Below, one piece after another: positions 30,918-50,800 of a stretch of 64,000 nt of DNA. The notes under the pieces were generated by a model. The model had not been told where the DNA came from, did not search any database, and saw only the letters and a list, made by a program, of their open reading frames with translations. This stretch comes from Microthyrium microscopicum (taxonomy: Eukaryota): assembly GCA_010405405.1 (NCBI GenBank), contig MU004239.1, positions 186,001 to 250,000 of the forward strand, read 5' to 3'. The position numbers and the translations under genes were made by a program. Numbering within the stretch: position 1 is the first letter of the stretch; each line of letters begins with the position of its first letter.

Positions 30918-31178
30918 GATAGGAAGAAACCCCGATAAGGACAAAATCCATAGAATTGTAATTAATTCCCAGTGTCCATAAGCTATCTAACAGATATTCG
31001 AACAGTAAAAGAAGCGCATAGGTACCTCCAAGAAGCCATTAGTAAGCACAAGTCCAAGAAGTGAAATCCTCCTATCCTCCGCGATATCAGCTCGCGCACA
31101 ACTCAAAAACAATTAATAATATGGGTATTTAGTCAGCCTCGCGCTTGTCCTCAATCTCGCCTGCTCTCTCGCAACGCC

Positions 31179-33253
31179 CTACGTAGCTGCCACCGCAGGC
31201 GCTTTTCCAGCCTGTGTACTCTGAGCGCCATCGACTCCATTCATCTTCTCCTCTACCTTCTCCGGTTCCTCAGTCAGCGGCCCATTCCCATTCAAAACCT
31301 TGCCTCCCTCATAACCTTCCTTCCTGCGATTCGCGCTCTCTCCGTTTACACCAAGATCCCTACCCTTGGCGAGGCTCTTATAGTGCGCCTTCTTCCGATT
31401 GCCCTTATTGCTCGCATTATGTTTCAACGTCTTCAGCAGACTCGGATCCTCGCGGCCCCGTGCAATCATATCTTCAAGATCGCTTTCATCCGAGCTGCTG
31501 ATGCTGCTGCCGCGACTAGTCTGGCGGTACATGACCATGCCATCTTCTTTCTGTTTCTGGCGCTGCTCGTCCTTGAGTTTCTGCTGTACTTCTGCATCTT
31601 TTTGGCAATCGAGCGTGACGACTTTCAGGCCAGGTAGATTGCGTTGTAAGAATTCTTTGAGTTTGGGGAGGAGGTCGGCGTTGGGCCGGTAAGTACCGGA
31701 ATCGTTGTCGATGACGAGCTCGTAGTAGGCTGGATCTTTGACGGGTTCATCACCACCGTCTGGCTCTGGGATATCGTTGGGTGGATGGGCGGGGTTATCG
31801 CCGCCTTCCTCCGGTGGTGGTTGGTGCTTGTGCTTTAGTCGGCGCACGAAGAATTCGCCGGAGAAGGCGATGTAGAGCGCGACTTCGCTGTGCATTGTGT
31901 GCTTGGATAACATGTCGATGCCGAATTGCTTGCCTGTCTCCGTGAAGCGCATTAATCCGTCGAGAGTCAGAATGTAGGTAAAGATGCGGCCTCCTTGGTC
32001 AAAGTGCACGAGTTCAAGGAACTTTAATGCCGCTTCGGTGTTGGGCCCGTTGGGCATATAGCCTGTTTCTGTGGAGCGGTCGAAATGGTAAATTTGGTCA
32101 TGTTGGTGCATGAGGGCTTTATGGAGGAAGAAGCCTCGGAGGCCGGAATGAGTGAACATGCGCTTGACAAAGGGACGGAATTCAACGTATCGGTGGTATA
32201 GCTCGGCGGGGACTGGACCGGCGAATTGGAACTGGTTTGCTTGGAAGCTGAAATTTTGTTAGCAAAAGGAAATGCGATTGAGATGTGAGCTTACTTGTAT
32301 TTCTGCGCCTTGGTCTTACTGCTATCATCGGCCTCTTCAGCTTCCTCTGTTGCAGTGTTTTGCCCTGGGGTTTTGCGACCGGTTATGCGACCTAGAAGAG
32401 GACTGTAATGTCGTGTGAACCACATGGGTCCAACAGTATACAATCTGGAGCCATGTTCTGATTCCGTGCGACCAAGATTTTCAATGCTGACAAAAAGATG
32501 CCCGTCCATGTGCTTTCTCTTACGAACGCCAGTAGCGAGGGCTTGTACAAGATAGGCGCGTTTGCTACCTGTTCGTTTCTTGATCTTGAGATCTTGGTTG
32601 GTGATGCCTTTCCACGCTTCATCAAGATGATGTACTTCGATTTCGGCGTTTCCAAGGCGATCATCATGGTCTGCTGGATCTTCGTCGTAGATTCGGCATT
32701 TCAGTTTGAATCCACTGGCGGGGACATTTGCGACTATCCATTCAGCGTTCCATTCTGGGTCGGTGTTCCTGCGAATAGTAAAGGTGCGCATCCTCATGGC
32801 GGGATCTTCCTTGTGGCGAGTCGGATTATGTGTGTAAATTTGAGATATGACATATGGATCGGAAGATAAGGAGTTGATATCGGCCATTGGTAGATTCTCG
32901 GCGCGATGGATTGTAAACTTGAGGGTATAGCCCGGAGGCATTCTGGGAATAGGCGTCGCATCGTATCCGCCTGCAGGTTTGGGCTCGGAGCTGCTGGAAT
33001 CGGATTGTTTGTTAGACTTGGGCGAGGAAGAGTTGTCGTCTTTAGCTGGTGTCGCAGAGTCCGGATTGGGATGATCTCTGCCTGACTCTACGGTTGGCTC
33101 GGCGGCAGTGCTTGGCTTGCTTGGTTCGGCAATTGCTGGAGCTGCTTGAGCTTGCGCTTGATGATCTTGATGATCTTGATCTGACGTCACATGGGATGGA
33201 GGAGGCTCTGAGGCCTCGTGCGCCTGACTGGGAACAGGGCCGGCAGCGGACAT
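31179..33253 (-). CDS. Conserved fungal C2-domain protein; intron ~32294-32249
   Basis: LKFTIHRAENLPMADINSLSSDPYV...YDEDPADHDDRLGN (C2); downstream FQANQFQF and FTETGKQFGIDMLSKHTMHS. Confidence 0.85.
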
Positions 33254-33455
33254 GGTGAACTACTAGAAATAAAGGAAAAAGGGACCAAGTCTTGGTATGA
33301 TGCGGTGATGTTGTGCAGGTAACAAAGACAGCCAAACAACGCAGACTTGGCACGACGGGAAGAAAAGCAAAGGAGGATTGGGGGAAAGCAGGCACTGAGG
33401 CAGGGCCAACGGATCAAATGACAAAAAGTGGGAAGACGGATCAAGCACTTTGATA

Positions 33456-33712
33456 TCTCTGCTGCGCGTTCTGTCCTACACAGGCAGAAAAATGGCCGTC
33501 TTTTTTGATCGCACCTGCGAAGCTGTTGATTAGCTGCATACTCCTAGAATAAGCGATTATTATTGGCTGATAATATCTTGGCAAGGAACATCAAAAAGTC
33601 AACCAATCAGCTTAGGCAAGGAGTGCCCTCACAACCAATCAGCTTGGTCAAATGGTGCCCTACTTCAGAGAGCAATTTTCCAGCCTGTGTAGGACAGAAC
33701 GCGCAGCAGAGA
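33456..33712. mobile_element. MITE (~257 bp) with 30-bp perfect TIRs and flanking TA dinucleotides (Tc1/mariner-type target site)
   Basis: tctctgctgcgcgttctgtcctacacaggc at 33456 and its exact reverse complement ending at 33712; TA on both sides; internal direct repeat caaccaatcagctt x2. Confidence 0.85.
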
Positions 33713-33771
33713 TATTTTAGATTGCCGTCTTGGCAACCATGATCCAGGCCAGATTCAAATTTCAAGCCATT

Positions 33772-34100
33772 AATCTGCAGGGTCGGCAGCTGAAATCTTT
33801 GATAAGCTAAAGTTTGATAACCCCTTTGGCGTTTTATAAAGCGTACTATATAAATTTAAGCTCGTGATAGCTAACGTTACTTATAAAGGGATAGCTAATC
33901 TACTTCCCGTCGTTATACTATAAGGAAATTATACGGAACTTAAGGAACTAAGCAGTTTTGAGGCTTAAATCTATTATATAGCGCTAACGTAATCCATTAG
34001 CGCTATATAATTACTACCAATTGTTGAGTAACACCTTACCTAATCAAGCGACGGATCAGGTTCTTATTATTACGGATCCGGGTTGCCGACCCTCCAGATT
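33772..34100. mobile_element. Second small TIR element with an AT/TpA-rich (RIP-like) interior
   Basis: aatctgcagggtcggca ... tgccgaccctccagatt imperfect inverted ends; 15-bp perfect hairpin at 33973-34011. Confidence 0.6.
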
Positions 34101-34743
34101 CTTCTCTCAGCACTGAGCAGTTCAGCCTTAAGAAGTTAAGCTCATCAGGGCTGTATCACACGAGTCAGCACCATGCCACCGCTTCTAAACGGGGGCCGTT
34201 ACCTAGAGCAACCAACCTCAATGCATTTTGATGAATCTACTCCTTGGGGCGGCTTTGAAGAGCATATTCTATGTAGTCATGACTATTTCAAATGATCCGA
34301 ACTGGGTAGGTACAATAGCTATTTGATACATATTATATATTTATGTATTTATGTACTTTGGGTCCAGTTATTTAAGAAAGATTTTACGTTTACCCGCTAT
34401 TTGTTTATTTCAGGGGCATTGTTGTCAGTTTCACGTTAGTAAGGAGAACTTCGTAGCTTGAAGACTTGACAACAGGTCTTGATCTTGACGACCACCTACC
34501 CGCACCCTCTTCTGGATATTCCTCCTTTGATCTATGAATAACCTTCAGGATTGCCATGTAGGTGGTCGGTGTATCATAGCTAATGGCTTAGGCGTTATGG
34601 TCTGAAGACATTGATCAATAATTACACGCCATAGCCGCGTTGACGCCTCGGTGGCGTTGATCCGTTGCTATTCATTGTTTACCTACACTTTGTCCATGTT
34701 ATCTAACCTTCAATACTTTGACTGGAATTGTACACCAACGATC

Positions 34744-35502
34744 ATGGCTACGCCCGCCGCATATCACCGCTACGCTAAGCACGGCTTTGCAGGTCTCGAC
34801 GGAATTCAAGCCAAACACATCATGAGAATCATGAATTCCCCTTGGGATGCAGACCAGGAAATTGCAAAGCAGATCAACGCGCTGATAAAGCGCTTCGCCA
34901 TCAAAAAGCACATGGAAACTTACTATCGAGCCCGTGGTTTGTCTGTGCCCAGAAACTATGTTGATAAATGCGACGAGCCCGGATCAGGGCGCCATAGCCC
35001 AGTTCCATCAGGGCCACTCGACCACGACCACTCACTTATTCTATACGAAGAACCGTCTTGGGACGAGAGACTGGCTACCGCTAAAGAACTCGCTGCGCAA
35101 GCACAACAAGCTGGACACGCCAGCGACGATATATTCCACATTTTCTTCTACGACGGTATTAATGTTGCACAGCAATGGCCGCCAAGTATACGCCTCATGC
35201 ACGAACCTTGGATGAAGAAATGCGTGTCCGAAGACCTTCGGATTCCAGTTGATGAGGTCACGCTGGAGAGCTTCCTGATCTGGGAGAGAACTGGTTGTTT
35301 CACTAAACCTTTCAGTTTGGGGTGGTTGCCACTGCAGAAGGGAGAAGACTTTCTAAGTGCCAACAAAGAACTGATAGCGAATACGAAGCGAATGAATGCT
35401 AGAAGATGGAAAGCAAAGGCACGAAAGAATGGACCAAGAAAGAAGAAGCAAACCAGAGTGACTGCCGTGACAGTAACGGTCTCGATTGAGGAGTCTGGAT
35501 GA
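34744..35502 (+). CDS. Hypothetical protein, RYAKHGFAGL family (modules N+C)
   Basis: MATPAAYHRYAKHGFAGLDG...MNS...SPVPSGPLDHDH...HIFF...MKKCVSEDLRIP...VTLESFLIWE. Confidence 0.8.
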   Translation: MATPAAYHRYAKHGFAGLDGIQAKHIMRIMNSPWDADQEIAKQINALIKRFAIKKHMETYYRARGLSVPRNYVDKCDEPGSGRHSPVPSGPLDHDHSLILYEEPSWDERLATAKELAAQAQQAGHASDDIFHIFFYDGINVAQQWPPSIRLMHEPWMKKCVSEDLRIPVDEVTLESFLIWERTGCFTKPFSLGWLPLQKGEDFLSANKELIANTKRMNARRWKAKARKNGPRKKKQTRVTAVTVTVSIEESG

Positions 35503-35638
35503 GAACTATCCTATATTGTAGCAGTTGTATACATATTGTATGAGTATATCAAGTTGTCAAGTAGCCGAAACCGCCATCGCACCAAGGGTCTACAAGTATT
35601 CAGAAGTAGCTAAAATTATGGGAGAAGAAGACCCAAGG

Positions 35639-35866
35639 CTAGGTGACCTGCTCGCTCATCAATGGGTATCCTGGCCAGTATTCTCGCAGCACTTGTTCAT
35701 TATCAAATATTCTGTCACCGTGCTCTACTGCTACTGTCTTCTCTTGTCGTTTACTCGCATAAACCGAATCTACTCTAAGATGACAGTCCACTTCTTTAGC
35801 TTGGACTCCATCCAGGCCGGCAAAGCCGTGCTTTGCATAGCGGCGCTGCACATCGTGTGTGACCAT
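35639..35866 (-). pseudogene. Truncated RYAKHGFAGL-family copy (N-terminal fragment only, 75 aa)
   Basis: MVTHDVQRRYAKHGFAGLDGVQAKE...VEHGDRIFDNE; resembles VDHGHDRIFESE of the 47134 paralogue; no C module. Confidence 0.6.
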
Positions 35867-36320
35867 AACGGTTCCCAGGTTGAATCTGTCGTGTAGGGCG
35901 AAAGATTTGTAGAAGCAGAGAAGCATAAATGAAGTGTAAACACCAAGAGCAACTGGTTTGTATTCGCTCTCATGTGTTTAGCGGTAGCTTTTCACATTTT
36001 GAAACAGATATATCAACATCCATTTCTATTGTGATATAATTCTAAAAGGAAGAGAAGATAGCCAATAGCAATGTTTCGTTATATCTGATAGCTCTTTGAA
36101 ACCCTACATACGCCTTTAGCAAGTAATATGGAGTGACAATAAAGAAGAGGCGGGCGAGTAAAGGATATAAGGGTCCCGAACAACGATCAATAACAATCTG
36201 AGTATTGGGATAACCTTAGAGAGATGATCCTGTACTCCGAGGCTCTGCATAATCCATACATTATATACATCCTGTCAGCTCGAAAATTTTGTATCCATAG
36301 AATGGGCAGATTAGGGCTCA

Positions 36321-39300
36321 TTAACGAGTCCAAAAGGCAATGATATCGTCAAAGTCTTTCGTCGTCAAGGTCTTAACATCTCGGTCCTCTTTAGTGATCT
36401 CCTTTCTCAAGCGAGAGGCTACTCTAAGGGCAATAGAGGCTTTTTGCACCTTGCCTGTCGCCTCGAACAATTTTCCTTTCAGGAAAGTAGTACGAGCAAT
36501 CTCGTTCTTATGTGCGTTCGGATCAACAGACCATATGTCCAGCGCCCCGTTGATCATAGCACTGAAAATGATTAACAAAATCTCAGCCAATGTAATGAAT
36601 GTGGGAGCACTTACATCGCTTCCTCGGCCCTTCCTAAACGGATTAGGTGCTCAGCAATCTTATAAGCAACCCTTGCGGTGTAAACATCCTTTTCGCCCAC
36701 CGTTTCGCGCATGTGGCGCCACGCCCTGTCATGATATTGGAAACTTTCATCCCATCGGTTCTGCGCGGAACGAAGGCTGCCGAGGGCAGAAAGAATCAAT
36801 CCAGTCTTCACAGATTCCCTGTCATCTTTGCCCAAAGCCTTTTCTCTCCCCGCTAAACTGTCCAACAGGAGCCTGTCACACTCTTCAAGCTTTCCCTGCG
36901 CAAGAAGAGCCCAGCTGAGAGTAGCCTCACCAGCACGAGGAACATAGTTGCCGAGGGCTTTACGTATGCGTAGCGCCTCCTTTAGATCCTTTTCTCCTTC
37001 TTCGTACCGTCTATCTTGGATGCGTGAGATCCCTCGCTCTGCGTAGGCGAGGTATAATCTCTCGTCGGCAGTGCCTAGATCTTTGCAAATTTTAGAGACT
37101 AGATCAAGAGAATGTTCCTTGTAAAAGCGGCTGCCATCGAAATCGCTCGCATCCATGGCAATAGCACCCAAGCAAAAGTAAATGTCTGCAAGCACTGAAT
37201 CCCGATCTGGGTGTGTTGAAGACTCGCATATACTACGAGCAGTGTCGAAGAAGCCGTCAAAAGCCTTTGTCCTCCCACGCTCTTTTTGATACCTGCAAAT
37301 GTTAGATTAACAGCAAGGGAATTGTTGTGATAGTTTATACGCACCATGCAGCCTCATTTAGTAACTTTGCAAAATGCAAACTGATGGCCTCAGAGGGATT
37401 TGGAACGACTGGCCAGAGCTGATGTATTCTTAGGACGTGGGGATAGATCGCCGCACATACAGGCCACCTTCCAACATGTTGCCTTCCACCAGTAGACTTC
37501 GGCTTAGGTAACTCTGGGTCCTTTGATGGTTTTGGCATGGCGGATGGCCAATCTGCCCAAAGGATTCGTACAACTTGGTCAAGCATAAACCGTTTCTTCG
37601 TAACATCCATTGTTGCCAAGATTGCATCTTGTACAATGCGATGCACCGATAGATGCTGCTTTTGCTTATCTCTCTGGACAAGAGATGACTGCAGGAGATC
37701 AGCTCGAGCCTCGATGTAGTTGGCCTTCTTGAAATGTGTGCCCTCGGAAAACAGATCTGCCGATGCTGCCATCAACAAGTCTTCTCCGGTGACATCTGGA
37801 TCAAGAAACGAAAGTAGCTCCAAGAGCTGGCGAGCTTGCGGCTTCAGCTTCTCAAATGCCCAGACAGTGGAGAGAGAATGACGATATGTGACCAAGCTGG
37901 TATCAAATTTCGTCTCATAAAGACTGGCATGTTCTTCATGGTCTTTATACAGCTCCAAAAACTCTGACAGGGTGAGGTCCTGTCGACGAATGATGCCTGC
38001 CATCTGAGATATGGCTAGAGGAATGCCACCGAGTGCGTTTGAGATTTTCCGCGCAGTATCATCTTCTGGCTCGTTGACAGTGGTAGTGAGATGGTTGAAT
38101 AGGGATAGGCTATCTTGTTGTGTAAGTGGACCGAGATCTAGGCCTGAGGGTCTTCTCGTAAATATGCTTTTGGACAATGGATCACGGCTAGTGACAAGAA
38201 TAGAGCCACTTCCTTGCGGCCAGTAGTCTGCAAGAACTATAGGGTCGTCTGCGTTGTCGAATATAAGCAGCCAGGTCGCCTCTGGTCTAGATTCACCGGG
38301 TTGATCAAACTCATCTGACCCCGAAAGATGCTTGCGAGGACAGGACAGCCATCCTTTCACAATTTCTCTACTGACGACCTGGCTCTTACATTCGGATGAA
38401 TCTTCGAGTCCTAGTGCCAATGAAATTTGCTGGTAATGTTCGTCAAGCTTCGCAATCTCATCCGCCGCAACCCAGAAGATTGCATCAAAGTCATTTTTAT
38501 GACGCCGACAAAACTCGCGGGCTATTTCCGTCTTTCCAATACCTCCAAATCCACAGAGTGCAAACTGTCGTAGAGCTGTACCTGACGCTGTTACTATGTT
38601 TTTCGAAGGTATGAGCTCGGCTGCAAGGCACTCCAAGATATCTTCGCGGCCGCAGAAATCGCTATTTGCAGATTGCGTGTTGAGCAGGAAGCACGGTAAG
38701 TTAAGAGTCTTCCCAATTTTAGTATTTGTTGTTGTAGGATATACCATCTCAAATCCCGCGAGAGATGTTCCTTCTGTTGCTCTGTTTGAAGGCCATTCTG
38801 TTGCTTTGTTTGATGGCCATTCGGTGAGTTCCACTTGCTCAACTAATAGAGGTTAGTACGGCGACTTGGTGAGACACGCACAACAAGCTCACCTTTGAGT
38901 GGTAGTTCACTCAATGTAGGCGAGTAAGCGCTCATCGTTGCGTATTGGTACTCCTCTGGGACTATTAGTCCGATTCTAGAGTCTATTGACAATTTCATAA
39001 CCTACGGTCCTCAAGTCGAAGTGCAACAAGACGCGTAGCGTCATGCAGTGTCTCGTGAATAAACTTGTTGAATTCGGCTAAGCCTTCGCCGCCAACGCTC
39101 TTGGTGAACAGACATGTATCGTAATGGTTGACATTGAGGCCAATAATTGTTTCCATTGGGGCATGTGTTGAACAAGTCTCGCGATAAACCAACTTGAACA
39201 CACGAATTAGTGTTCATAGATCAGCTAAGAGTGGAGACTAACCTGTTGGTATTTTGAGCGCAATGGCGTTGAACTGTTTTTTGTTTCTTTTAGTTCATAG

Positions 39301-40056
39301 ACAGAGAGTATCGGGGTACGGAACGAGATTCCTTCAAATCTGTCTGCGAGGTCAAGCAGAATGGCCCCTTCTTGTGCAATGTTGGCGTTTGGGATCTTCA
39401 GGTTTCTACCAGTAGTCGCTTCCAAGACATCGCGAAACTGTGTGAAGCTCGTGGTCCTGTCGCCGTAGCGATGAGGACTGCTTAGAAAGATTACTCCCAC
39501 TATAGCATTGACAATTGATCCGTACCGAGGGAACTGCTTATTGGCAACGCACAAAGCCTGTTTCACTACAATGCCACCTAAGCTGTGGCAGACAATAAAG
39601 ATTGGCCTGTTCGCGGTCTAATAAAGGCACATCAGCAAGCATACAGCGAGCCTAGAGGGGATGAACCTTGACTGTGCCACTTACCACGCGTGTGCCTATC
39701 TGTGAAGGCACGTCGCTTAAATGCTGGAGAAAGTCGTAGCCCAGCATCAAAATTGACTCCCATGAGGGCTTCGTGCCCATAAATGGCGAAGCGTATTCGT
39801 ACGCAAGGATACGCGCCGCAGCACTGAAGCCAGGTATGGTGGCGAGCCAGGCTTCGTTTGCAAATGGCCAGTTCTCGGGTGAGGTAGTTCCAATGCCAGG
39901 AACGAGGACGACGCTAGATTTAGGCGTAAGTTGAAGAAGCACCGAACTAGACTTGGTTATAGCCTTCGCTTACTCGATACCATCCTGAGAAGTATCCACA
40001 GGATCCCTCAGGACTCGAAGGCGGCCGGTCGCTGCAAAGCTCATCACTTTAGCCAT
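36321..40056 (-). CDS. NLR-like protein: SesB-type alpha/beta-hydrolase + NB-ARC + TPR; 8 exons, apparently intact
   Basis: VVLVPG, RPIFIVCHSLGGIVVKQAL (nucleophile elbow), P-loop LCGFGGIGKTEIA, WLLIFDNADD, GSILVTSRD, LGGIPLAISQMA, TPR-like ALRIRKALG and REKALGKDD; all splice phases checked. Confidence 0.88.
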
Positions 40057-40652
40057 GATTGAGCGTTTTGTGATGAGAGGAAGATGGATTGCTAATGCAG
40101 TCGACAAGACGATCTAGATACCACGATACCTTAGTACTTATCTCTCCCTCCGGGAATGGATATATGCGGGGCGTAATGGAGAGGGGTAGCGGGTTGGCAG
40201 GAGTGTACTGTATGAATGCCTGCGCCTCGACTAGGCTGACCTGTAAATAGTAGCCTCATGTCGCAAAGACCGTCTTGATTTCGTAAGTGAATAATTACGT
40301 AGAGCAAATACGCTGAGATAGTACCTGCTGCAAGGGTAGATGATTCCGTGTTTCTCAAATATAAATCTTGGAGGCTAAGGCGGTATGTGGCTATAACTTA
40401 CCTCAATAAAGGGATGTCCGTTGATCCTAAAGTACTGTTTTCACTCTTCGCTTGTCCAGATAAGCACAGCAACCCTTCTGTTCTTCCCCGTAGTGTTGCA
40501 AGTAAGTATTGACTGTAGAAATCCTATCAAATGATATATATGATGATGAAGTAGAGGAGGAACTATTAATACCGAGATTGCGCTGTGTGACGATCGTACC
40601 ATGTAGTCCACATACCGAAAGTATGGTGCAATTACAACATCGATACAACCGA

Positions 40653-42481
40653 TCACACAATATGGCTCAGTTCTTTCTCGCCTCTTCCACCGATCATGCC
40701 TCGCCTAACGCCGCAACATTCCTTCCAGAAACTTTTGCAAGACCGTCTCAGAGCCTGGAAGTCCCAAAGATAAGCAGTGTAGGCACTCAAAGTGATTGGA
40801 ACACACAACACGAAGAACCACCAGAACCTTACCGTACCCTGTCCAAGAATATCGACATTCATACCAAACAAGCTAGTGCTAAAGCCAAGAGGAATGAAGA
40901 GTGTCGCGAGCATAGTCAATTTCTTGAGTCGCTCAGACTGCTCAATCGCTTTGCGGGATTCATCTATCGTGGCTTTATTCATTGCCAAAGTTATACCACG
41001 AGAACACATTTTTGACATGTCGACGCAACGAACATGGAGTTGTTCATAATCTTCCAAGAGGCCGTTGGTAGTGAAAGCACCATGGGAACTACTGCTTCCG
41101 ACGTTTTTAGCAGGCTCTGTCTCTGAGGCGTGTCGTTTGACTCCGTTCAAACCTGGACTACCGCACTCGGCCAATTTGTATAGTGCACGTATACTATCTC
41201 TTAGCTGTTGGGCATGTCGGTTGAGAATGTTGGAGAAGTATTGTAGTGTTTCCAACGCGTCCGCTGGGATTCCTTCGGCTGTTCTAGTCATTTGGATTTG
41301 GATTCTGGATTCCATAAGATTCAAGAACTGAACTTCAGAGAAAGCCGAGTGTGCAAACAACGGGATACACATAGACATCGGATCCTGAGGCGCACGACGG
41401 GCCAAGTCAACGAGGGCGATCAACGAATCGTACTGCAGGGGAAGGATGGCTGCACTTTGCTGAACTTCTGCCGAAGCATTCGCATCTGGGGCTAGACGAT
41501 TAGTCGTAGTTCGGAATGCCATCTTATGATGATGTTGAAGAACAGGTAGTGGAGTTGCCCTGGATTCGATATGACTTGTCCACGGCCCTGGAGGGGATTT
41601 TTCCAAGGGTCTACCCTGGTCCATCCAGGCAATAACTGAATACATACATCATTAATGATGTTCCTCGTGGTAAGGGGCATTGTATCTTACCAGCCCAGCC
41701 CCTTTCTGATTTTGCGACGCACAGTGAAATCCATTGTTCCACCACAGAGAAGTGTGAGCACACAGTGGAGTACTCGCGCACGAGGGAGTCTCCGCAGCAG
41801 ACTTTAGTAGACCCAAGCTGTTGTATCTTGTATCTTTCAAGCCCAGTCGAGTGTTCTGTCCGCTGTGTTTGGAGTTCCTATCCCCCAAAGTCATCGCGTT
41901 GAAAGAGGGTGCTCACACAAAGTCGAAATGTATTATCCGAGGAACTCGCAAGCGAAGGGAAACTGTACGCATGTCTGTTGATGTTTGCGGAAAGGAAGTC
42001 CATATGTCTCCTGAAAAACTCGGGATCGATGCTATATTTGCTCCCAATGGCCGACACCCAAGACGGTGATATGAAGCCTCTAATGAAGACTATTTGTCCT
42101 GAGCCTCCAGCAGCGAGCGAGGTTGCAACAGAGAAGGTGTCGTGTTGCTCTTGACTATATTGTTGCACGTCCCACTTCTTGTCCCCGCTGCTGTATACCA
42201 CGACCAAATCGTGATGCTCTTCGGATCCGGAAGCGAAAAGGGCGGCATCCTCTTCTGATTTCGCCGAGTTGAGAAGACTATGGTCTTGTAGCAACCACTC
42301 TCCGATGTCGACATAATTATTGCCTGGAAAGACAGAGGTGCTCGAATATCTTCTCGAAAGTGAGATGATTGCTCGAGCGTAATTCTGTGGTGTAACTGCC
42401 AAGCCAAGCGTTAATTTGACGATAGTTGGACGATAGAGTAATGGAGGATGAAAACTTACGTGCGGACTTTCTACGCTCCAT
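40653..42481 (-). pseudogene. Fungal CorA-like membrane protein gene with a single in-frame TAG at 41880-41878; introns ~42459-42396 and 41690-41636
   Basis: IDPEFFRRHM...DDFGG*ELQTQR...GDSLVREYS...FSVVEQWIS...W|VIAWMDQG...KKLTMLATLFIPLGFSTSLFGMNV (GMN motif, two C-terminal TMs); frame continues through the stop. Confidence 0.75.
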
Positions 42482-43256
42482 TGTGCTTACCGGCAAACCG
42501 GTAGGCTTCTTTTTGGGACCCTCTAATTTAGTATAGGTTAGTTACATTTCGGACGCGCCTAGGATTGTCTAGCAGAGTGGAGAAAACAATCATTCAAGAA
42601 GCTAAAGGCCGGACTTTATTACTCTACTATGTCGAAACGTGAGGCGGATGCCTTGTACGGAGTACAGTATAGCCTGAAGGCCGTTTGCGACAAGGTGTCT
42701 TTTTCTCTTGACCACCATTGGACGAATTGAATGAGGCTGTCGCTGCATAGCCGCTGGAAAGTCCCGTAAGTGGTGGAACATGTGGAAGTGTTCAAGGAGA
42801 TTCAACGCATCCCAAGGTTGACTTGAATCATTTGATAACTGGCGTGGCCAGGCTAAACCACGCGCATACGACCAAGAAAGCCAATCTGCCTTGCCTACCA
42901 AGGCAGAACCCTCAGCTCACTAACCGCGAAAGAATTACTATACGGAGTCTAAATCGCTCCGTTCCATACCGCCGCATATATAGAGTAGTCTCTTTCAATA
43001 GGCTTAGTCACCTGCAGATTCCTTTTGCTGGCAAAAACGAAGAACTCATCTAAACAAAGGAGTGTATTTTAGTACTACTAGTACATAAAGTACTAGTAAG
43101 TACTACAGTACTTGCAAGTACTCTAGTAGACATTTGCGACCCAGAAACACCATTTTTTCTGCAACATCTTTCAGCCCAATAACACCGTCAACAAACCATC
43201 AAGATCCTTTTGCAGTACACGAGCATCATCAAATCCTTGGTCTGCATTCAGTGATC

Positions 43257-44161
43257 ATGTCCACCCTCGAGAGAAAGTATGTGCTCTCTATACCAGAGTT
43301 TATAACGAGTGAATATGAAAGTTAACAAGGTTGCGTGTCGCTAGCTTCCCCGCAATACGCGCCTGCATCTTCGACATGGACGGGCTTCTCATCAACTCCG
43401 AAGACATAATCGGTCAAACCACGAACTATCTTCTTGAAAAGTACGGAAGGCCTGCCCTGACTCGCGCCATTCGAGCGCAGCTCATAGGTGTCTCGGGGTC
43501 AACAAATGGTGATGTGTTTCACAACTGGGCGAAGCTGCCCATCTCCCGCGAGCAATTCGCCCGTGAATCTAGTGAGCAAATGCGACTGCATTTTCCAGAT
43601 TGCGAGCCGATGCCCGGCGCCGAGACGCTTGTGTCGAACCTTAGCCGTGCGTGTATTGCTTCTTCTGGGGATATGATTGAGCTGGCATTAGCATCCAGCA
43701 CCAAGAGTCGTTCCTACGAATTGAAAACTTCCAAGCCGAGAACGAAACAACTACTTGAGTTCTTCCAGTCAGAGAGGCGAATTCTCGGCGACGACCCACG
43801 AGTGCGATTGGGTCGAGGGAAACCAGCGCCTGATATGTATTTAGTTGCGTTAGAGGCATTGAACGCGACTGCAGACTCTGACAAAGATCCCATCTTGCCT
43901 AACGAATGTTTGGTCATCGAAGATAGCGTGGTTGGGGTAGAGGCGGGACGACGGGCTGGGATGAGGGTCATTTGGGTACCGCATCCAGACGTAGCGCTCG
44001 AATATCAAGCTAGACAAGAGGATGTGCTGGCTGGAAGGGTGGGTTTAATCAAGATCGGAGACGACTGGCAGCTAGGAGATATTGAAGATGGATGGGCTGA
44101 ATGTATAGAGAGTCTAGAACAGTTTGATTATAACAAGTATGGTATACAGGTGCCGTCCTAG
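43257..44161 (+). CDS. HAD-superfamily phosphatase (HDHD1/GS1-like); one short 5' intron
   Basis: ACIFDMDGLLINSED, ALASST, GRGKPAPDMY, ECLVIEDSVVGVEAGRRAGM. Confidence 0.9.
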
Positions 44162-44396
44162 CCTTTGTAGAACAACATTGCCGGTTCAAATTCGTTGTTT
44201 GCTTCTCAGTGTACAAGGAAGGGCTCCGACTAACAAACGATCGTCCACTTGCCTAATAATAATGCCTAGTCCCTCGATATTTAGCCACATAGTGTGGAAG
44301 ATCAGCTAAGTACGGTTGTACGGGACGACCCGATCCATGTGGGCTTAGCACCCTGCAAGGCTGCAAATAGTACACCAGACACTAAGAGAGAATGTA

Positions 44397-44521
44397 ATTT
44401 GAGCAAGCTAATTGGCTGAGATCTGATGTTGATGCTTCATTTCATTCTTTAAATTCATCACGAAGATATTATCAGCCAATAACAATCGATTATTGTAGTG
44501 GTGCAGCCAATTAGCAGTTCT
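44397..44521 (-). repeat. Degenerate inverted copy of the interior of the 33456 MITE, with no TIRs
   Basis: aagatattatcagccaataa (44463-44482) is the exact reverse complement of 33560-33579; flanking similarity on both sides. Confidence 0.7.
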
Positions 44522-44793
44522 GAAAGAGTCCTGTGGTTACAGTACTTGTAGAACCTGGACAAGGTATTCGAAGGTAGTAAAGAGATGGAGGGTCGCTTAC
44601 AATGCTCACTACCTGATAAGCTCAGAACGCGTGGCAGAGTTACAATACGTAAGGTGCGGGGGCTAGAACATCTGCATTTTAATCTCGAAGGGGAAGGCAG
44701 TATTTTGATTCCCTATCTTGGGATTCTTGGCTGAGTTCTAAGTTCTAGACTGTTGTAGCATTCCAGCATTTCAGCATAGGGGTATCACTCCTA

Positions 44794-46027
44794 ATGGGTC
44801 AATTCGTCGCAGTAGGAAATTGTGTTCTCGATACCATTTTGAGGTACAAGTTTCTTCCATATGTCCGTTTGTTCCTTGTTCCATGGCTGATGGGACACTA
44901 CTCTAGCGTTCCACATTTTCCTGGAGAAGATGATAAGCTGCGCGCCTCTAACATCACGAGAAGAAGGGGAGGAAATGCCCCAAACACAGTCGACGTGCTT
45001 CAACAACTTTTCGCCAGCGATGATGAGGCAGATCGGACCATTGGTCTGAATTTGATCGTGGTTCTCCCCAACCGCGCATCACCGGCGGTTCAAGAGATAC
45101 AACGGTCGTTGGGATCTGGAAAGGCCATAACAAAGAGCATTTATCGCGAGGACTACTTTGAGGCTTCGTCGAGCTACATCATCAAGAACCTGGCGACTGA
45201 CAGCAGGACGATAATTAGTTACAATTCCTTGCAAGATATGAATTTCGAAGAGTTCACTCAGATCGCAGGATCCTTCGGCAATGAGGCAGTGTGGTATCAT
45301 TTCGAAGTAAGACTCCGCTCCTCTTGTTTTTCCCCAACGTTCGAACATCTGATCACAATAGGGTCGCATACCGGATGTCACATTAAACTGCATCCGATAT
45401 CTGAGGAAGTCGGCGCCAGACGTCAAGATTAGCGTAGAGATCGAGAAATTCCCAAGAGAAGGGCTGGAAGAGCTTGTCCCCGAAGCTGATGTTATCTTCT
45501 ACTCCAAGATCTGGGCTGTAGTACGTAACCCTGCGGTACCTCTACTGATATCCTGGTATCTTAACATGATTCTAAACAGGGAAATGGATACAAAGATGCC
45601 GAAGCTTGTCTTCGAGCGCAAGCAAAACTTGCTCCCAGCGCGTGAGCTTATGCTTTTCATGCTTCGCATTGGGCTAACAATTATCTACCAGACTCCTTCT
45701 TTGCTGCACCTGGGGAATGCAAGGCGCCTCGGTTTTCGAACCTGCAACTGAAGCCTATTATCACAGAGCCGCATGGGTGTCAAAGGACTCCCAAGTCGTT
45801 GAGTAAGCAAATAGGTTTCCTCCTTACGTGAAAAAGCTGACTCTTTTAGTACCATTGGGGCAGGTGACACGTTTATTGCAGGAATGCTCTACTCGTACCT
45901 CGCACCCAATAACAACTGGCCGGTTTCCCAGAAACTCGAGTTCGCCAACGAGCTTGCAGGACGGAAAGTGGTCCAGGAAGGGTTTGCTGGCCTTGGAGGG
46001 CTCGTGCATCGTGGATTGCAGCAATAA
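44794..46027 (+). CDS. PfkB-family carbohydrate kinase, ketohexokinase-like; about 5 introns
   Basis: VAVGNCVLDTIL, FPGEDDKLRA, RRGGNAPNT, WYHFEGR, C-terminal TIGAGDTFIAGML...ANELAGRKVVQEGF. Confidence 0.85.
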
Positions 46028-46330
46028 TCATTAGGTATAGGCCGAGTATTGGCGTGTCTGTTGCTCTTGATAAAGATATGTTAGTACAGTCGGCATTGGA
46101 ACCAAGTTGCTATGTGGTGCCTACACCTTGACTTGCGTCTTCAAATGCTAGAATCGTTATTTGTCTTGACGCCCTGATGACAATAAGTTTTGCCATACGA
46201 CAACTCGTCTTGTTCATCAAAGCACGGTACTTCGTTGCATCATTCTTGACCTTCCGCTTTACTACATTGATACAACCATAAGATCTGTCTCATCCAGGTA
46301 CCTGTGTAGCAGCTACTGCCATTGAACACC

Positions 46331-47134
46331 CTATACGTTGGATTGCTCCTTCCTTCTTGATCTACTCTTTCGTGATCTTGATTTCCTTCTATTTTTCATT
46401 TGCCTCTCTTGCTCAGCTTTGAATGCCTTATTGAATTTATCGCGCTGAAGGAGTTCATTTTCCTGTGTATTTGCTTGCGGTCTGAACAGCCTCACTTTCC
46501 AGGCGTTTTCCTCCTTCTCTGCATCTTGCTGCGCTTTCAACCATCCTGGGCTCCATAACGGCTTTTCGAAGTCCATGATGCTCCAAACTTGAAACGTTTC
46601 TTGTGTAACCTCATCGTAAGGAACGTCAAGGTCTTTCGCGACCCGCTTTCTCATGTATGGCTCGTGACTTTCAAGTAGCTCGGGTGAATCTCCAAGGGGA
46701 CAGGCTATAGAGAGACCGTCGAAGAAGAATATCTTGTGTATGGGAAGGAAGCTGTAGCTATGATCCTTAGCGACCTCTTTGGCGGCAGCCAGTCTATTTG
46801 CAAAGCGAGGCGCACGTTCGGATTCGAATATCCGGTCGTGACCGTGGTCGACTGGTCCTGGGGGAATAGGACTGTCCGGCACCTGCCTCCACTCGCCAGA
46901 GTCAGCATCGTAGGTCTCTTTGGTTTTGGGCCCGGGGCAACATTTGCAACCCCATGGGCCATTGGATCTTGCAATTCTAAAATTTCGTATAGAGTTGTTG
47001 ATCATTCTTGCGTGTTCCGTGAATTCTTCGCGCGTCGAGTTCATGATTTTGATAATCTGCTTGGCTTCGAGGCCATTCAGACCTGCAAAGCCGTGCTTCG
47101 CGTAACGATCTCGTAGCTCCCTTGTTGTAGCCAT
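46331..47134 (-). CDS. Hypothetical protein, RYAKHGFAGL family (N+C)
   Basis: RYAKHGFAGLNG...MNS...SPIPPGPVDHGH...KIFF...MRKRVAKDLDVP...VTQETFQVW. Confidence 0.8.
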   Translation of the reverse strand: MATTRELRDRYAKHGFAGLNGLEAKQIIKIMNSTREEFTEHARMINNSIRNFRIARSNGPWGCKCCPGPKTKETYDADSGEWRQVPDSPIPPGPVDHGHDRIFESERAPRFANRLAAAKEVAKDHSYSFLPIHKIFFFDGLSIACPLGDSPELLESHEPYMRKRVAKDLDVPYDEVTQETFQVWSIMDFEKPLWSPGWLKAQQDAEKEENAWKVRLFRPQANTQENELLQRDKFNKAFKAEQERQMKNRRKSRSRKSRSRRKEQSNV

Positions 47135-47817
47135 GATCATTCACAGAATGAATTGCAAAAGTGATGAAAGAACTAGGGGTGAAAGCTAAAGACATGGACG
47201 AGGTGTAAACAACAGGAACAACATCCTTGTAAACGAAGCTCGAAGGGCCTGCCAACGCCACAAACGCGTCAACGCGGCTACAGCGTGTAGAGAGAGATTG
47301 ACCAACGACAACGGAGCTTCAGACAATACTTTTGCATAGCCTCCCTTATCAGTATCGCTCCAGTGTTGCTCGCATTATTACAGATAATCAGATACTGTAC
47401 CTGCTTTGGTCGGCTGCGACCCGTTACTTCACCTCTACCTTCTTTCAGTATTCTAGTGATGCAACGGCAGACAGTAAAGGTCCCGTAGCTGTTCGTGAAC
47501 TTGAAAAAGTTAGAAGTGATGCTCCAGCAAGGAAATTGAACTTCAGTCTATCATGCTCAAGAAGAGCAGAAAATCAAGGTCCTGACATACGAGCCTGTGT
47601 GCTCTACTTGCATGATCGAATCAGCCTTCTCAGACAATAGGCTTGCCAACTGCAGACGCCTGCAGAAGCCAATCATGGTACAGCACGACAAGGCGGGGAG
47701 GATGATCAAGAAATGGCTTCGACAGCCTAATCCTACGTTTCCTAAGCATTGCAAACTTTTGCCTCGAAAACTCTACCTTGTGTGCTTTTGAGCTGACCAC
47801 AGGTCATTCGTTACAGT

Positions 47818-50800
47818 ATGAGCAAATTTGTGAAGAAATTCCACGACTTGACACATCGAAAAGAACGGGATGAAGAGAATGCGGTACAGAAAGATCCTCA
47901 TTCCAAAGCTGGTGGAACTATTGTGCCCGCAGAAAGTATGTTCTTTGGCGGAGTTGTGGCATACTGAAACTCATCGACTGTAGATCAAAATGTTCAGAAG
48001 GTAGTCCAACCTACCGCTAGCTCGAGTACCCATATAAATGTAGTCGAAGACAAGAACGCCCAGCAGCATGATAGCCTAGCTTCAAGACCACCAGCTTCAG
48101 TAAAGGCCACCGAGTCACCTAATAGTGCTTCTATCGCTGCGGTGGCACAAAATGATGCTCAAACGCACGACAAGCATGAGCCAGAGCCGACCACTTTACT
48201 AAAGCCCAACGAGTCCGTCTTAAGTTCCTCTACTGCTCCGGCCGCGGACTCTAGCAATGATATGGCTCCTGACGCAGAGATTGGAGACGAGAGAACTGCA
48301 AACTCCTTTTCTCAAGCCCTCTGGGACGATGCCTACGACAGCATCAAGGACGAAGAACTTTTGCAAAACTACAATGCCGTTTTGAGGCGATATTTTGAAG
48401 GAGATAATAAGAAGGACATTTCAGTAGCCGAAGCTATCGAGATATCTGCCAAACTCAACAAGCGATCTGAGCGACAACGGTACATGGAGGATTTAGTTGC
48501 AAGCGGTAAAGCCAGAATTGAAAAGTCGTCAAAAGTGTCAAAAGTCGTGGGCGATGTTGCCAACGGGATCCTCGTACTCAAGCCAGTAATGGAGATAGTG
48601 CTGAAGGTACCTCAAGCCGCACCTGCTGCACTTCCATGGGCTGGAGTATGCGTTGGTCTTGAGGCTAGTTTCCTGACCTTATGTACAATGTAATTGTGCT
48701 AATATAATTTAGATGTTGGGAAATCCGGGGAAGGCTACCGCTGCCAATGTTGATGGCATGACGCATGTCGTAAACAGAATGGAGTGGTATTCCTTGATCA
48801 GCGAGAATCTATTGCAACCAAGCAAAGAAGATTCTAGAGCTGCTTCACTCAATTCGATTCTTCAAAATTTGACGCCAAGGGTTGTGCAGCTGTTCCAGTC
48901 CATACTGATGTTCCAGATGAAGAGCATATGTTCCTACTACAGGAATCTAGGCTACAATTTTCTGCTTCAGATGGTCAATCATGATGACTGGGAGGCCTCG
49001 AAGAAAAGCATCATTAAAGCGGAGGAAGATCTACTTCGCGATTGGAAGAAATATGACGAGCTTAAAGCGAGCAAAGTCTCGGAAGAGCTTCTTGAACTTA
49101 CCGGAAAGGTGGAAGCACTGCTTGGTGATATCAGTCAAACTCTCGGGGAGTTGATTGTCGAGGAGAAGCAAATGCACTCTGAGGAGAAGATCAGTCAGTG
49201 TCTTCGAGATCTTCTACTCGTGAGCCCTATGGATAACATGGATCGAATTGAAGACGACAAGGAAAAGCTTGTCGACGCTGCGTATCAATGGATCTTCAGC
49301 AACAAAGAATATACTAAATTCACAAATTGGACCGATCTATCTTTGTTACAAAATCGACTTTTGTGGATCAAAGGTGACGCTGGAACTGGGAAGACTATGC
49401 TCTTGATGGGTATCATTCGACAACTTTCGGGGTCAGCGGCAGTATTCTCGCCGAGTTTGTCCTATTTTTTCTGTCAAAGCAAGGACAAGACCACAGTGCC
49501 ATTGAATAGCCTCACTGCTGCTTTGAGAACCCTGATATGGGTGTTGGTCATGCAACAGCCAAAACTTATACCGCACTTGCAAAAACAATACGAGAGTCGA
49601 GGTAAAAAGTTGTTTACCAATATGGATGCACAACAAGCAATGCTCCGGATCTTCGAAAACATGCTGAAAGACGCCGAGCCGGTCTACTTTATTGTTGACG
49701 CACTAGATGAGTGCGAAGAAGGCTTGGACGCCTTCATCGAGCTGATAGCTACCTCGCTTTACCTATCGCCAAACGTAAGATGGCTCATCTCAAGTCGGCG
49801 GGAAGTCAACCTCGTAGAGAAAATGATGCTGCAGATGAAATCCGGTCGATTGAACAAGGTCCCACGAAAGGATGGCGCTATTAGCGCCAGTCTTCAGGAG
49901 ATCCACATACAGTCTCAGCAAGAGAGAGTAACGAGATATATTGACCAAAAGCTGGATGATCTTACGCGTTCCGAGTTTGGCGAGACATATACTGAAGACA
50001 TTCTCAAAGTTGTCAAGAAGGAAATCTCACAGCGTACCGAGGACAACTTGTTGTGGGCTTATTTGGTATTTGAAGATCTCAAAATTATGGGCGGAGACGA
50101 TGCGGTCAAAAACATCACAGACTACCCGCCTGGATTGTCAAAATTATACGATCACAAAATGACCAACCTTCGCGATGGAGGAACGAAACATCTGGAATGG
50201 TGCTATGATGTATTGGTCATAACCTCTCTCGCATATCGGCCACTTGCTCTTCACGAAATCAGTGCTCTTGTCCCGTGGTCCACCAAGCTACACCCGCGCA
50301 CCATTGTCAGCCAGTGCAAGGCATTCGTTGCAATCAATCAAGATAAATTGGTGACATCGGTTCATAAATCGGCTCGGGATTACATTCTTGATGTCTACAA
50401 TGAGTTCAACGGTGGCAATATCCATGGTCACGTAGACATTGCGGAATGCTCTCTCAGTGCACTGAGGACCACCCTCAAAACTCGAAATGTATACGGCCTC
50501 AAGCATTATGGGATCACAAAACAGGACGTGAAACGTCCGGAACAAGCAAAGGATCCTCTAGCGCCCATCGAGTATTCTTGTGTATACTGGGCTGAACATC
50601 TTTGCGTGGTGGACTACAGTGATGCTAGGCGCCTAGAAGAAGTCATGAAAGAAGTGAAACTTTTGGAGTTCCTCAATGAATGCTTCTTGTTCTGGCTTGA
50701 GAGTTTGTCCCTCCTAGGGCAAGTGGCTGAAGGATCGCGAGCATTGAGGAAATTGGAGAGCATTGTCAAGGTATGGCTCCCACTGCAACCTATATTTTAC

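Follow-up and report, generated by a model that had tools for sequence, protein, structure and literature searches.

Hydrolase domains of the sesB-like type are among the commonest N-terminal domains of fungal NOD-like receptors (NLRs) in two surveys (Dyrka et al. 2014, PMC4986451; a Sordariales survey, PMC12258605), and the second gives the association of an NB-ARC domain with tetratricopeptide repeats (TPRs) as the most frequent one for NB-ARC NLRs (PMC12258605). A 64-kb stretch of the Microthyrium microscopicum genome (part of contig MU004239.1, hereafter the window) encodes an NLR of this same hydrolase, NB-ARC and TPR design, which lies beside a gene for a CorA-like membrane protein and a gene for a haloacid dehalogenase (HAD) phosphatase. 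It differs from the fungal sesB-like/NB-ARC/TPR NLRs of those surveys in that its group is highly conserved, its TPRs are non-repetitive, and it is tied to CorA-like and HAD genes, a linkage that goes unmentioned in the available parts of both papers (PMC4986451, PMC12258605). Our analysis suggests that the three genes form a cassette kept together in many Pezizomycotina and that its NLR and CorA-like proteins work together, a reading to which we assign a probability of roughly 0.55.

Two other kinds of system invite comparison. Pairs of the NWD2/HET-S type consist of an NLR and a membrane-acting partner whose adjacent genes are inherited together and whose products are linked by amyloid signalling. 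The window likewise holds an NLR with an adjacent, co-inherited and putatively membrane-acting partner; unlike in those pairs, the NLR starts with a full enzyme domain and the partner would be a CorA-fold channel, not a HeLo-type domain. A shared short motif of the NWD2/HET-S kind was looked for by eye, with no amyloid-motif profile search made, and the N-terminus of the NLR (MAKVMSFAATGRLRVLRD...) showed no likeness to the C-terminus of the CorA-like protein (...GGRGEKELSHIV). CorA-family proteins also serve as membrane effectors in some bacterial type III CRISPR systems, where, as here, a CorA-fold membrane protein is genetically coupled to a sensor inside the cell and a small hydrolase is encoded close by. 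The window differs from them in that its genes are eukaryotic and spliced and its sensor, a STAND NTPase, bears a lipase-like domain; none of the 37 window open reading frames (ORFs) scanned matched a cas-type family, and a Cas10-type signal synthase is absent from the locus.

Fungal NLRs are numerous and few have a known partner or output. The group described here is about 80% identical across four classes and has non-repetitive sensor repeats, unlike the usual fast-evolving receptors, and the three-gene system is open to knock-out and reconstitution in tractable moulds such as Penicillium chrysogenum and Trichoderma virens. It raises the questions of what cue a conserved fungal NLR responds to, whether ion channels act downstream of fungal NLRs or are guarded by them as in plants, and whether such a cassette moves between lineages.

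The three genes are linked in many fungal genomes

In the window, the CorA-like gene (40653..42481, minus strand; 3 exons, 569 codons including one in-frame TAG) lies upstream of the NLR gene (36321..40056, minus strand; 8 exons, 7 introns, 1117 aa), and a spacer of 596 bp (40057..40652, minus strand) separates the stop codon of the former from the start codon of the latter. The HAD gene (43257..44161, plus strand; 2 exons, one 68-nt intron, 278 aa) is transcribed divergently from the CorA-like gene across a 775-bp intergenic region (42482..43256). An earlier note on this DNA, made from the sequence alone, had described this arrangement, with a co-oriented CorA-like gene about 600 bp upstream of the NLR and a divergent HAD gene, and the gene models bear it out. 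The note had staked its interpretation beforehand on the closest homologues of the three genes being linked in other genomes, and linked they are, in named genomes and in metagenome contigs.

Adjacency in named genomes was judged by locus-tag numbers, taking two genes as linked when they were no more than two tags apart; locus tags follow gene order as a general submission habit. The match lists used hold at least 120 rows, so that they report presences and absences are not countable from them. Two or three of the three genes lie within two tags of each other in at least 14 named genomes spanning four classes (Leotiomycetes, Eurotiomycetes, Sordariomycetes and Dothideomycetes). HAD and NLR genes are two tags apart in Lachnellula occidentalis (G002770/2772), L. 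arida (G001253/1255), Pseudogymnoascus australis (010735/010737), Coleophoma (BP6252_04475/04473) and Paecilomyces (DTO217A2_7958/7960), and by analogy with the window we infer that the single tag between them in these five genomes would be the CorA-like gene. The NLR adjoins the HAD gene in P. chrysogenum (N7489_005837/5838), Conoideocrella (QQS21_005010/5011) and Onygenales PD_12 (FQN52_004295/4296), and it adjoins the CorA-like gene in Arthroderma (FQN49_007458/7459), Penicillium DV-2018c (N7535_007660/7661) and T. virens (TrVFT333_011010/11011). CorA-like and NLR genes are two tags apart in P. verhagenii (N7454_001986/1988) and P. malachiteum (N7483_012359/12361), and CorA-like and HAD genes are direct neighbours in Elasticomyces (LTS10_007083/7084).

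Contig sizes were also compared. Among the 57 NLR orthologue rows (self included), 26 share an equal-sized contig with a listed CorA-like or HAD match; by pairs, and with the window's own rows included, this holds for 11 rows for NLR and CorA-like, 19 for NLR and HAD, and 13 for CorA-like and HAD. One of the equal-size matches (1784 bp, from different sources) cannot be real, and small sizes therefore coincide by chance. Two versions in Penicillium salamii (on contigs of 984,859 and 153,086 bp) were not counted as a duplication, as they could be two loci or two strains.

Four metagenome loci (L001-L004), from about two organisms, were also available. In L002-L004 the CorA-like gene is followed by the NLR on the same strand, about 290 bp apart, with a convergent HAD gene downstream of the NLR. 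The HAD gene is thus on the other side of the pair from its place in the window, so it moves and yet stays beside the pair. Tag order in P. chrysogenum, Conoideocrella and Onygenales PD_12, where the NLR is next to the HAD gene, fits the arrangement of these loci.

The same order also appears at much greater distance. A deposited protein of Fusarium bulbicola (P0353, 1470 aa) carries Pfam CorA, DUF7779 and TPR matches together. Its first 560 residues are 27% identical to the Seiridium CorA-like orthologue, and from residue 603 it is 26% identical to the window NLR from NLR residue 198, so that it lacks the first part of the NLR hydrolase domain. Since it aligns with the CorA-like protein and then with the NLR, we take P0353 to be two genes merged in one model, a CorA-like gene and the NLR that follows it. 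Judged from these alignments it is a deeply diverged second case of the CorA-like to NLR order, the only such row among the 120 listed.

The recurrence of the linkage in so many genomes is more than chance would give. We found no report of a CorA-like/NLR/HAD linkage in the literature searched, supplements aside.

The NLR is intact, expressed and conserved in its repeats

The translation of the NLR gene has no stop and equals the deposited M. microscopicum protein P0241. All seven predicted introns coincide, base-exact, with joints in spliced RNA contigs of run X5, and we therefore consider the NLR expressed and correctly modelled. P0241 matches Pfam Abhydrolase_6 (30.8 bits, cut-off 26.3), NB-ARC (33.2), DUF7779 (99.9) and TPR_12 (65.6), along with PGAP1 in the hydrolase region and TPR_10. 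It is thus built as an alpha/beta-hydrolase (sesB-like), an NB-ARC, a DUF7779 winged helix and TPRs, which is the three-part architecture of NLRs (N-terminal effector domain, nucleotide-binding oligomerization domain and C-terminal repeats).

The hydrolase domain begins near residue 25 and carries the putative nucleophile elbow CHSLGG (aa 114-119; codons at 39573..39590, minus strand), a motif like the GxSxG expected of the sesB-like/NB-ARC/TPR class. The earlier note's claim of an intact NLR with this motif is therefore upheld by the stop-free 1117-aa frame and its RNA-confirmed introns. The serine is kept in 42 of the 50 alignment rows, every printed orthologue row included, and is replaced by glycine in five; H115, G118 and G119 are kept in 47-48 rows. 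The switch region is equally recognizable, with GFGGIGKT at aa 410, GGIPLA at aa 584 and VHRIV at aa 712. In the same 50-row alignment the NB-ARC columns G384, G386, K387, T388, D479, N480 and D482 are invariant, and at least 90% of the rows retain T501, S502, R503, G556, P558, L559, A560, H684 and R685, which gives a full set of NB-ARC motifs (Walker A, Walker B region, sensor, GxP and MHD-like).

The closest solved relatives of the TPR domain are kinesin light chains. Mean identity to the window NLR over 28 orthologues is 0.74 for the hydrolase, 0.82 for the NB-ARC and 0.79 for the TPR domain, and the highest identity (84% over 1117 columns) is with the orthologue of Lachnellula, a Leotiomycete. 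We looked for tandem and internal repeats in the TPR-coding DNA and found none; the only repeat array found in the gene is a 24-nt unit present 2.1 times (38772-38822, minus strand), which encodes EWPSNKATEWPSNRATE in the linker between hydrolase and NB-ARC. Highly similar, shuffling repeats, a trait of the NLR subset that serves non-self recognition and not of all NLRs, are thus absent from the window NLR. With TPRs as conserved as the NB-ARC and free of internal repeats, the protein is unlike the repeat-shuffling receptors of allorecognition, and its sequence points to the reading of a conserved cue.

The CorA-like protein has a whole CorA fold and a tail of its own

Pfam CorA (PF01544) matches the window exon with 40.9 bits (cut-off 27) over about the last 90 residues, and the intact Seiridium orthologue (P0004) with 43.5 bits. 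The GMN motif characteristic of the family is encoded at 40857..40865 (minus strand; aa 500-502, within FGMNVD at aa 499-504) at the end of the first transmembrane helix; across the 52 rows of a family alignment M501 never varies, and at least 90% of the rows retain G500 and N502. We modelled the fold of P0004 with AlphaFold from that 52-row alignment (mean predicted local distance difference test score, pLDDT, 80.8; predicted template-modelling score, pTM, 0.77). The model predicts helices at 432-500 and 514-532 and shows two C-terminal helices beyond a long stalk helix. Motif and helices agree with the earlier note, which had seen a GMN and two C-terminal transmembrane segments.

A Foldseek search of the model against the PDB returned Thermotoga maritima CorA chains, aligned in 466-501 columns (best E 2.4e-8, TM to target 0.42-0.54). 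As the match runs across the whole length, the long N-terminal part would be an enlarged CorA cytoplasmic domain, and the idea that this region sets the protein apart from a simple Mg transporter, put forward in the earlier note, did not hold. Profile score, GMN, two predicted C-terminal transmembrane helices and the modelled whole fold together place the protein in the CorA superfamily. It shares with T. maritima CorA (PDB 4i0u, 8tmc and others) the fold, the GMN that closes the first transmembrane helix, the two C-terminal transmembrane helices and the long stalk helix; it exceeds it by about 220 residues and has an enlarged alpha/beta domain at the N-terminus, and it differs further in having no MPEL-type loop (by eye), in a sequence likeness restricted to the last 45-95 residues (E 0.009), and in its own conserved ...EKDPSHIV tail.

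A sequence search of the PDB gave 11 matches with E up to 10, all of them CorA, ZntB or CmaX of T. maritima and other prokaryotes (best E 0.009). None of the 11 is an Alr1, Mnr2 or Mrs2 chain, and the listed fold matches are all T. maritima CorA; the PDB contains Mrs2 structures. The CorA-like protein is not Alr1/Mnr2/Mrs2-like and is not a transporter of the housekeeping type. Here the earlier note, which had set such a grouping as a test of its own proposal, fared well: the likeness is to bacterial-type CorA only, weak by sequence and whole-length by fold.

With 1883 representative clusters at E<=0.001 (41 at E<=1e-30) this is a large family, within which the orthologue group is one tight set, 62-85% identical to the window copy, the next relatives being 40-51% identical. 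This group has a C-terminal tail motif of its own, with the consensus ...[RK]SEKDPSHIV; in the window it is encoded by the last ten codons (40656..40685, minus strand), which end in ...EKELSHIV. Counting from the C-terminus in the 120 matches listed, 101 have K at -7, 84 have D at -6, 91 have H or Y at -3 and 100 have V at -1. An HIV or YIV ending was found in four of 148 more distant representatives, and three of those, in the printed subset, are orthologous fragments.

A nonsense codon interrupts the CorA-like gene of Microthyrium

The two introns of the CorA-like gene (64 and 55 nt) both fit the RNA contig depths. Its frame is interrupted in M. microscopicum by a premature TAG at codon 180 (41878..41880, minus strand), where homologues, the metagenome loci L001 and L002 included, read Gln within the conserved RDDFGGQ[DN]LQSQR. 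The deposited protein (P0001) equals our gene model minus 13 codons (VSTLFQRDDFGG*), removed as a 39-nt 'intron' (41916-41878) that conceals the TAG. The removed stretch corresponds to part of a predicted core beta-strand, residues 163-173, in the folded orthologue.

The RNA data do not show such an intron. The relevant contig (X5 record 10) has a depth of 105.8, and its bin depths of 97.0 (41340-42006) and 73.9 (42007-42673) are exactly those expected if the two introns (55 and 64 nt) and 77 nt at the 5' end are missing, and leave no room for an extra 39-nt gap. The same arithmetic recovers NLR introns in two further bins. X5 has six A>G differences, all at 33.8-34.0 kb, and none alters the TAG; the source DNA contig spans 34071-50000 without a difference. 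Given that the RNA contig keeps the TAG stretch, that no A>G change touches it and that the DNA contig agrees, the nonsense codon is real and is retained in the message. The CAG-to-TAG change at codon 180 probably leaves the CorA-like copy inactive, or able to yield just a 179-aa fragment. Read-through of the stop was considered and rejected as unsupported: the context is TAG GAA CTC, which to our knowledge resembles no read-through signal. For annotation there is a lesson in the deposited model, which hides a nonsense codon behind a 39-nt pseudo-intron.

The same 5825-nt RNA contig covers 36226-42536 on the minus strand and contains the CorA-like gene, the 596-bp spacer (with no gap) and the NLR. 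It could stem from overlapping or from read-through transcripts, between which a contig cannot discriminate. Its end at 42536, taken from the bin depths, is 55 nt upstream of the CorA-like ATG.

The HAD gene encodes a pseudouridine-5'-phosphatase-like protein

The HAD gene model equals the deposited protein P0121. It matches Pfam HAD_2 (66.8 bits against 23.8) and TIGR01509 (62.2 against 29.4) and has motif I (DxDG) as FDMDG, which makes it a HAD-IA variant 3 enzyme. Its closest solved relatives are HDHD1A/pseudouridine-5'-phosphatase (PDB 3l5k and 9m7l; E 9e-24 and 2.5e-23). It has the HAD-IA fold family and the DxDG in common with these enzymes and differs from them in sharing a cassette with an NLR.

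Gene trees suggest co-inheritance of the block

The 57-row NLR tree places Microthyrium as sister to the Sordariomycete Seiridium cardinale (approximate likelihood-ratio support, SH-aLRT, 100); genus-level groups are recovered and the between-class backbone is very short. In the CorA-like tree (36 rows) Microthyrium joins one sequence and then Seiridium (SH-aLRT 98), and in the HAD tree (51 rows) it groups with Seiridium and Neoarthrinium (SH-aLRT 90). All three trees have a short, unresolved backbone and patchy taxa. The unexpected sister Seiridium is therefore common to the three trees, as expected of a block inherited or moved as a unit. Forcing the three Dothideomycete NLRs together cost 72 log-likelihood units (approximately unbiased test, p-AU 0.003), in a test on 22 of the 57 rows that was set up after the tree had been seen. 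NLR orthologues at least 64% identical come from scattered species, and the next matches, among those listed, are at most 55% identical. From these trees we read the block as co-inherited, with at least one event that would be non-vertical descent or hidden paralogy.

The window flanks (31000-36320 and 44162-48000) gave no tblastx match to loci L001-L004. No recombinase or transposase family was found in the 37 of 46 ORFs of at least 150 aa scanned within the window, and the Starship captain domain DUF3435 gave no match in the same set, bearing in mind that Starships can exceed a window of this size. The mobility proposed in the earlier note is thus supported indirectly, by tree incongruence and patchy distribution.

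Runs X5 and X6, which stand under other organism codes, were considered as evidence of transfer and rejected: the housekeeping flank at 30-33.7 kb is also free of differences, so they represent the same organism. Run X7, a freshwater metagenome, has a few matching 151-nt pieces.

Proposed joint action of the NLR and the CorA-like protein, and its alternatives

In the cassette as we picture it, the CorA-like gene lies directly upstream of the NLR and in the same orientation, with the HAD gene flanking the pair on one of its two sides. The NLR would act as a switch driven by ATP, and its TPR domain, conserved and non-repetitive, may read a conserved cue. The CorA-like protein would form a pentameric cation channel and be the NLR's membrane partner, either its output or a component that it monitors, and the HAD enzyme could act on a phosphorylated small molecule of the same pathway. 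In M. microscopicum itself the cassette is probably crippled.

A number of points weigh against this picture. The CorA-like gene is broken here while the NLR is intact and expressed, so that the NLR is not visibly dependent on it, and an NLR with an enzymatic N-terminal domain of its own needs no separate effector. Adjacency in the named genomes was read from tags and contig sizes, not from DNA, and a shared megabase contig is not adjacency. Conserved linkage can come from co-transfer or shared regulation with no joint mechanism, and the HAD gene changes sides and could be a passenger. Finally, non-vertical descent, indicated for the NLR, was not significant for the CorA-like gene (cost 22.7 units, p-AU 0.08, 18 rows).

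The working-together of NLR and CorA-like protein could take a more specific form, which as a whole we regard as doubtful. The C-terminus of CorA is cytosolic, and kinesin-light-chain TPRs bind short linear peptides; we therefore propose that the orthologue-specific tail (...EKDPSHIV-COOH) might dock in the kinesin-light-chain-like TPR domain, the CorA-like protein being a dedicated partner and the NLR guarding or gating the channel. A conserved cue would release the switch, the output would be ion flux together with the lipase-like domain, the HAD enzyme would reset a phosphorylated ligand, and the cassette would spread between classes as a unit. If true, the arrangement would be the first in which a eukaryotic NLR is coupled to a channel of CorA fold. 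A complex prediction of the hydrolase (1-300) and TPR (750-1088) parts of the Seiridium NLR (P0247) with P0004 residues 1-330, run without alignments, controls or the C-terminal tail, had a score of 0.00 and a mark of 0.34, which counts neither for nor against an interaction.

The alternative that survives best, and that we take seriously while holding it unlikely, is that the linkage reflects no joint mechanism: the block would have been transferred or duplicated whole, or kept as a shared regulatory neighbourhood, and the NLR with its own lipase output, a channel for divalent cations and a phosphatase of nucleotides or sugars would act separately. An NLR complete by itself, intact and expressed here beside a broken CorA-like gene, speaks for this, as does the varying position of the HAD gene relative to the pair, and short unresolved backbones with patchy taxa are expected of a spreading block. 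It has more difficulty with the fact that the three genes stay together through rearrangements, and with a pair 26-27% identical that is also adjacent in the same order, which a single recent transfer of the block hardly explains; the tail that is specific to the CorA-like orthologues, too, points to a dedicated partner.

We consider somewhat less probable a specific version of the earlier note's proposal, a mobile immune module in which the NLR would sense non-self, the CorA-like protein would be a pore-forming death effector, like the CorA of type III CRISPR systems, and the HAD enzyme would clear the signal. The conserved CorA-like to NLR tandem speaks for it, and so do the one unexpected sister species of the three gene trees, the rejected monophyly of the Dothideomycete NLRs, the gap between orthologues scattered over species and the next matches, the flanks that are not conserved in L001-L004 and the repeats on both sides of the block in the window. 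Against these stand TPRs that are conserved like the NB-ARC and show no repeat shuffling, unlike those of known non-self receptors, and a retained GMN that fits a selective cation channel better than a lytic pore. Moreover, a signal-generating enzyme is not present, the ORFs scanned hold no recombinase or transposase, and the CorA-like copy is broken in M. microscopicum. That an ordinary Mg2+ transporter of the Alr1/Mnr2/Mrs2 type merely happens to lie beside an NLR is very improbable, for although the sources of homologues annotate them as 'Mg2+ and Co2+ transporter CorA', the linkage recurs in at least 14 named genomes and in metagenome contigs, and neither the PDB sequence matches nor the listed fold matches include any of these three transporters.

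Surroundings of the block

The genes to the left of the block are of the housekeeping kind and encode a Na/Ca exchanger, UBP, CCT and a C2-domain protein. The AT-rich left border described in the earlier note is present as a lower GC content (0.40-0.42 at 35750-36499, against 0.45-0.51 in genes), a modest difference at a level ordinary for intergenic DNA. A miniature inverted-repeat transposable element (MITE)-like element at 33453-33715 has 49-nt terminal inverted repeats (90%) and is multi-copy (contig depth 300-1500 against about 98). The repeat relic noted earlier on the right is confirmed as a 54-nt inverted partial copy (80%) of this element, 3' of the HAD gene at 44445..44498.

Two inward-facing paralogous genes, at 34615-35502 (plus strand) and 46331-47140 (minus strand), are 40% identical (E 5e-37) and have no Pfam family; they enclose the NLR, CorA-like and HAD genes together with a pfkB-family kinase gene. 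A third, partial copy is found at 35639-35977 (minus strand), immediately to the left of the NLR. One exon of the pfkB gene, searched against the PDB, gave no match; the gene lies beside the HAD gene at 44700-46030 (plus strand), and its five introns are confirmed by RNA contigs. About 4 kb to the right of the block, at 47968-53117 (plus strand), the window encodes a further NLR, of the NWD type, with NACHT_N, NACHT/NPHP3_N and WD40 domains.

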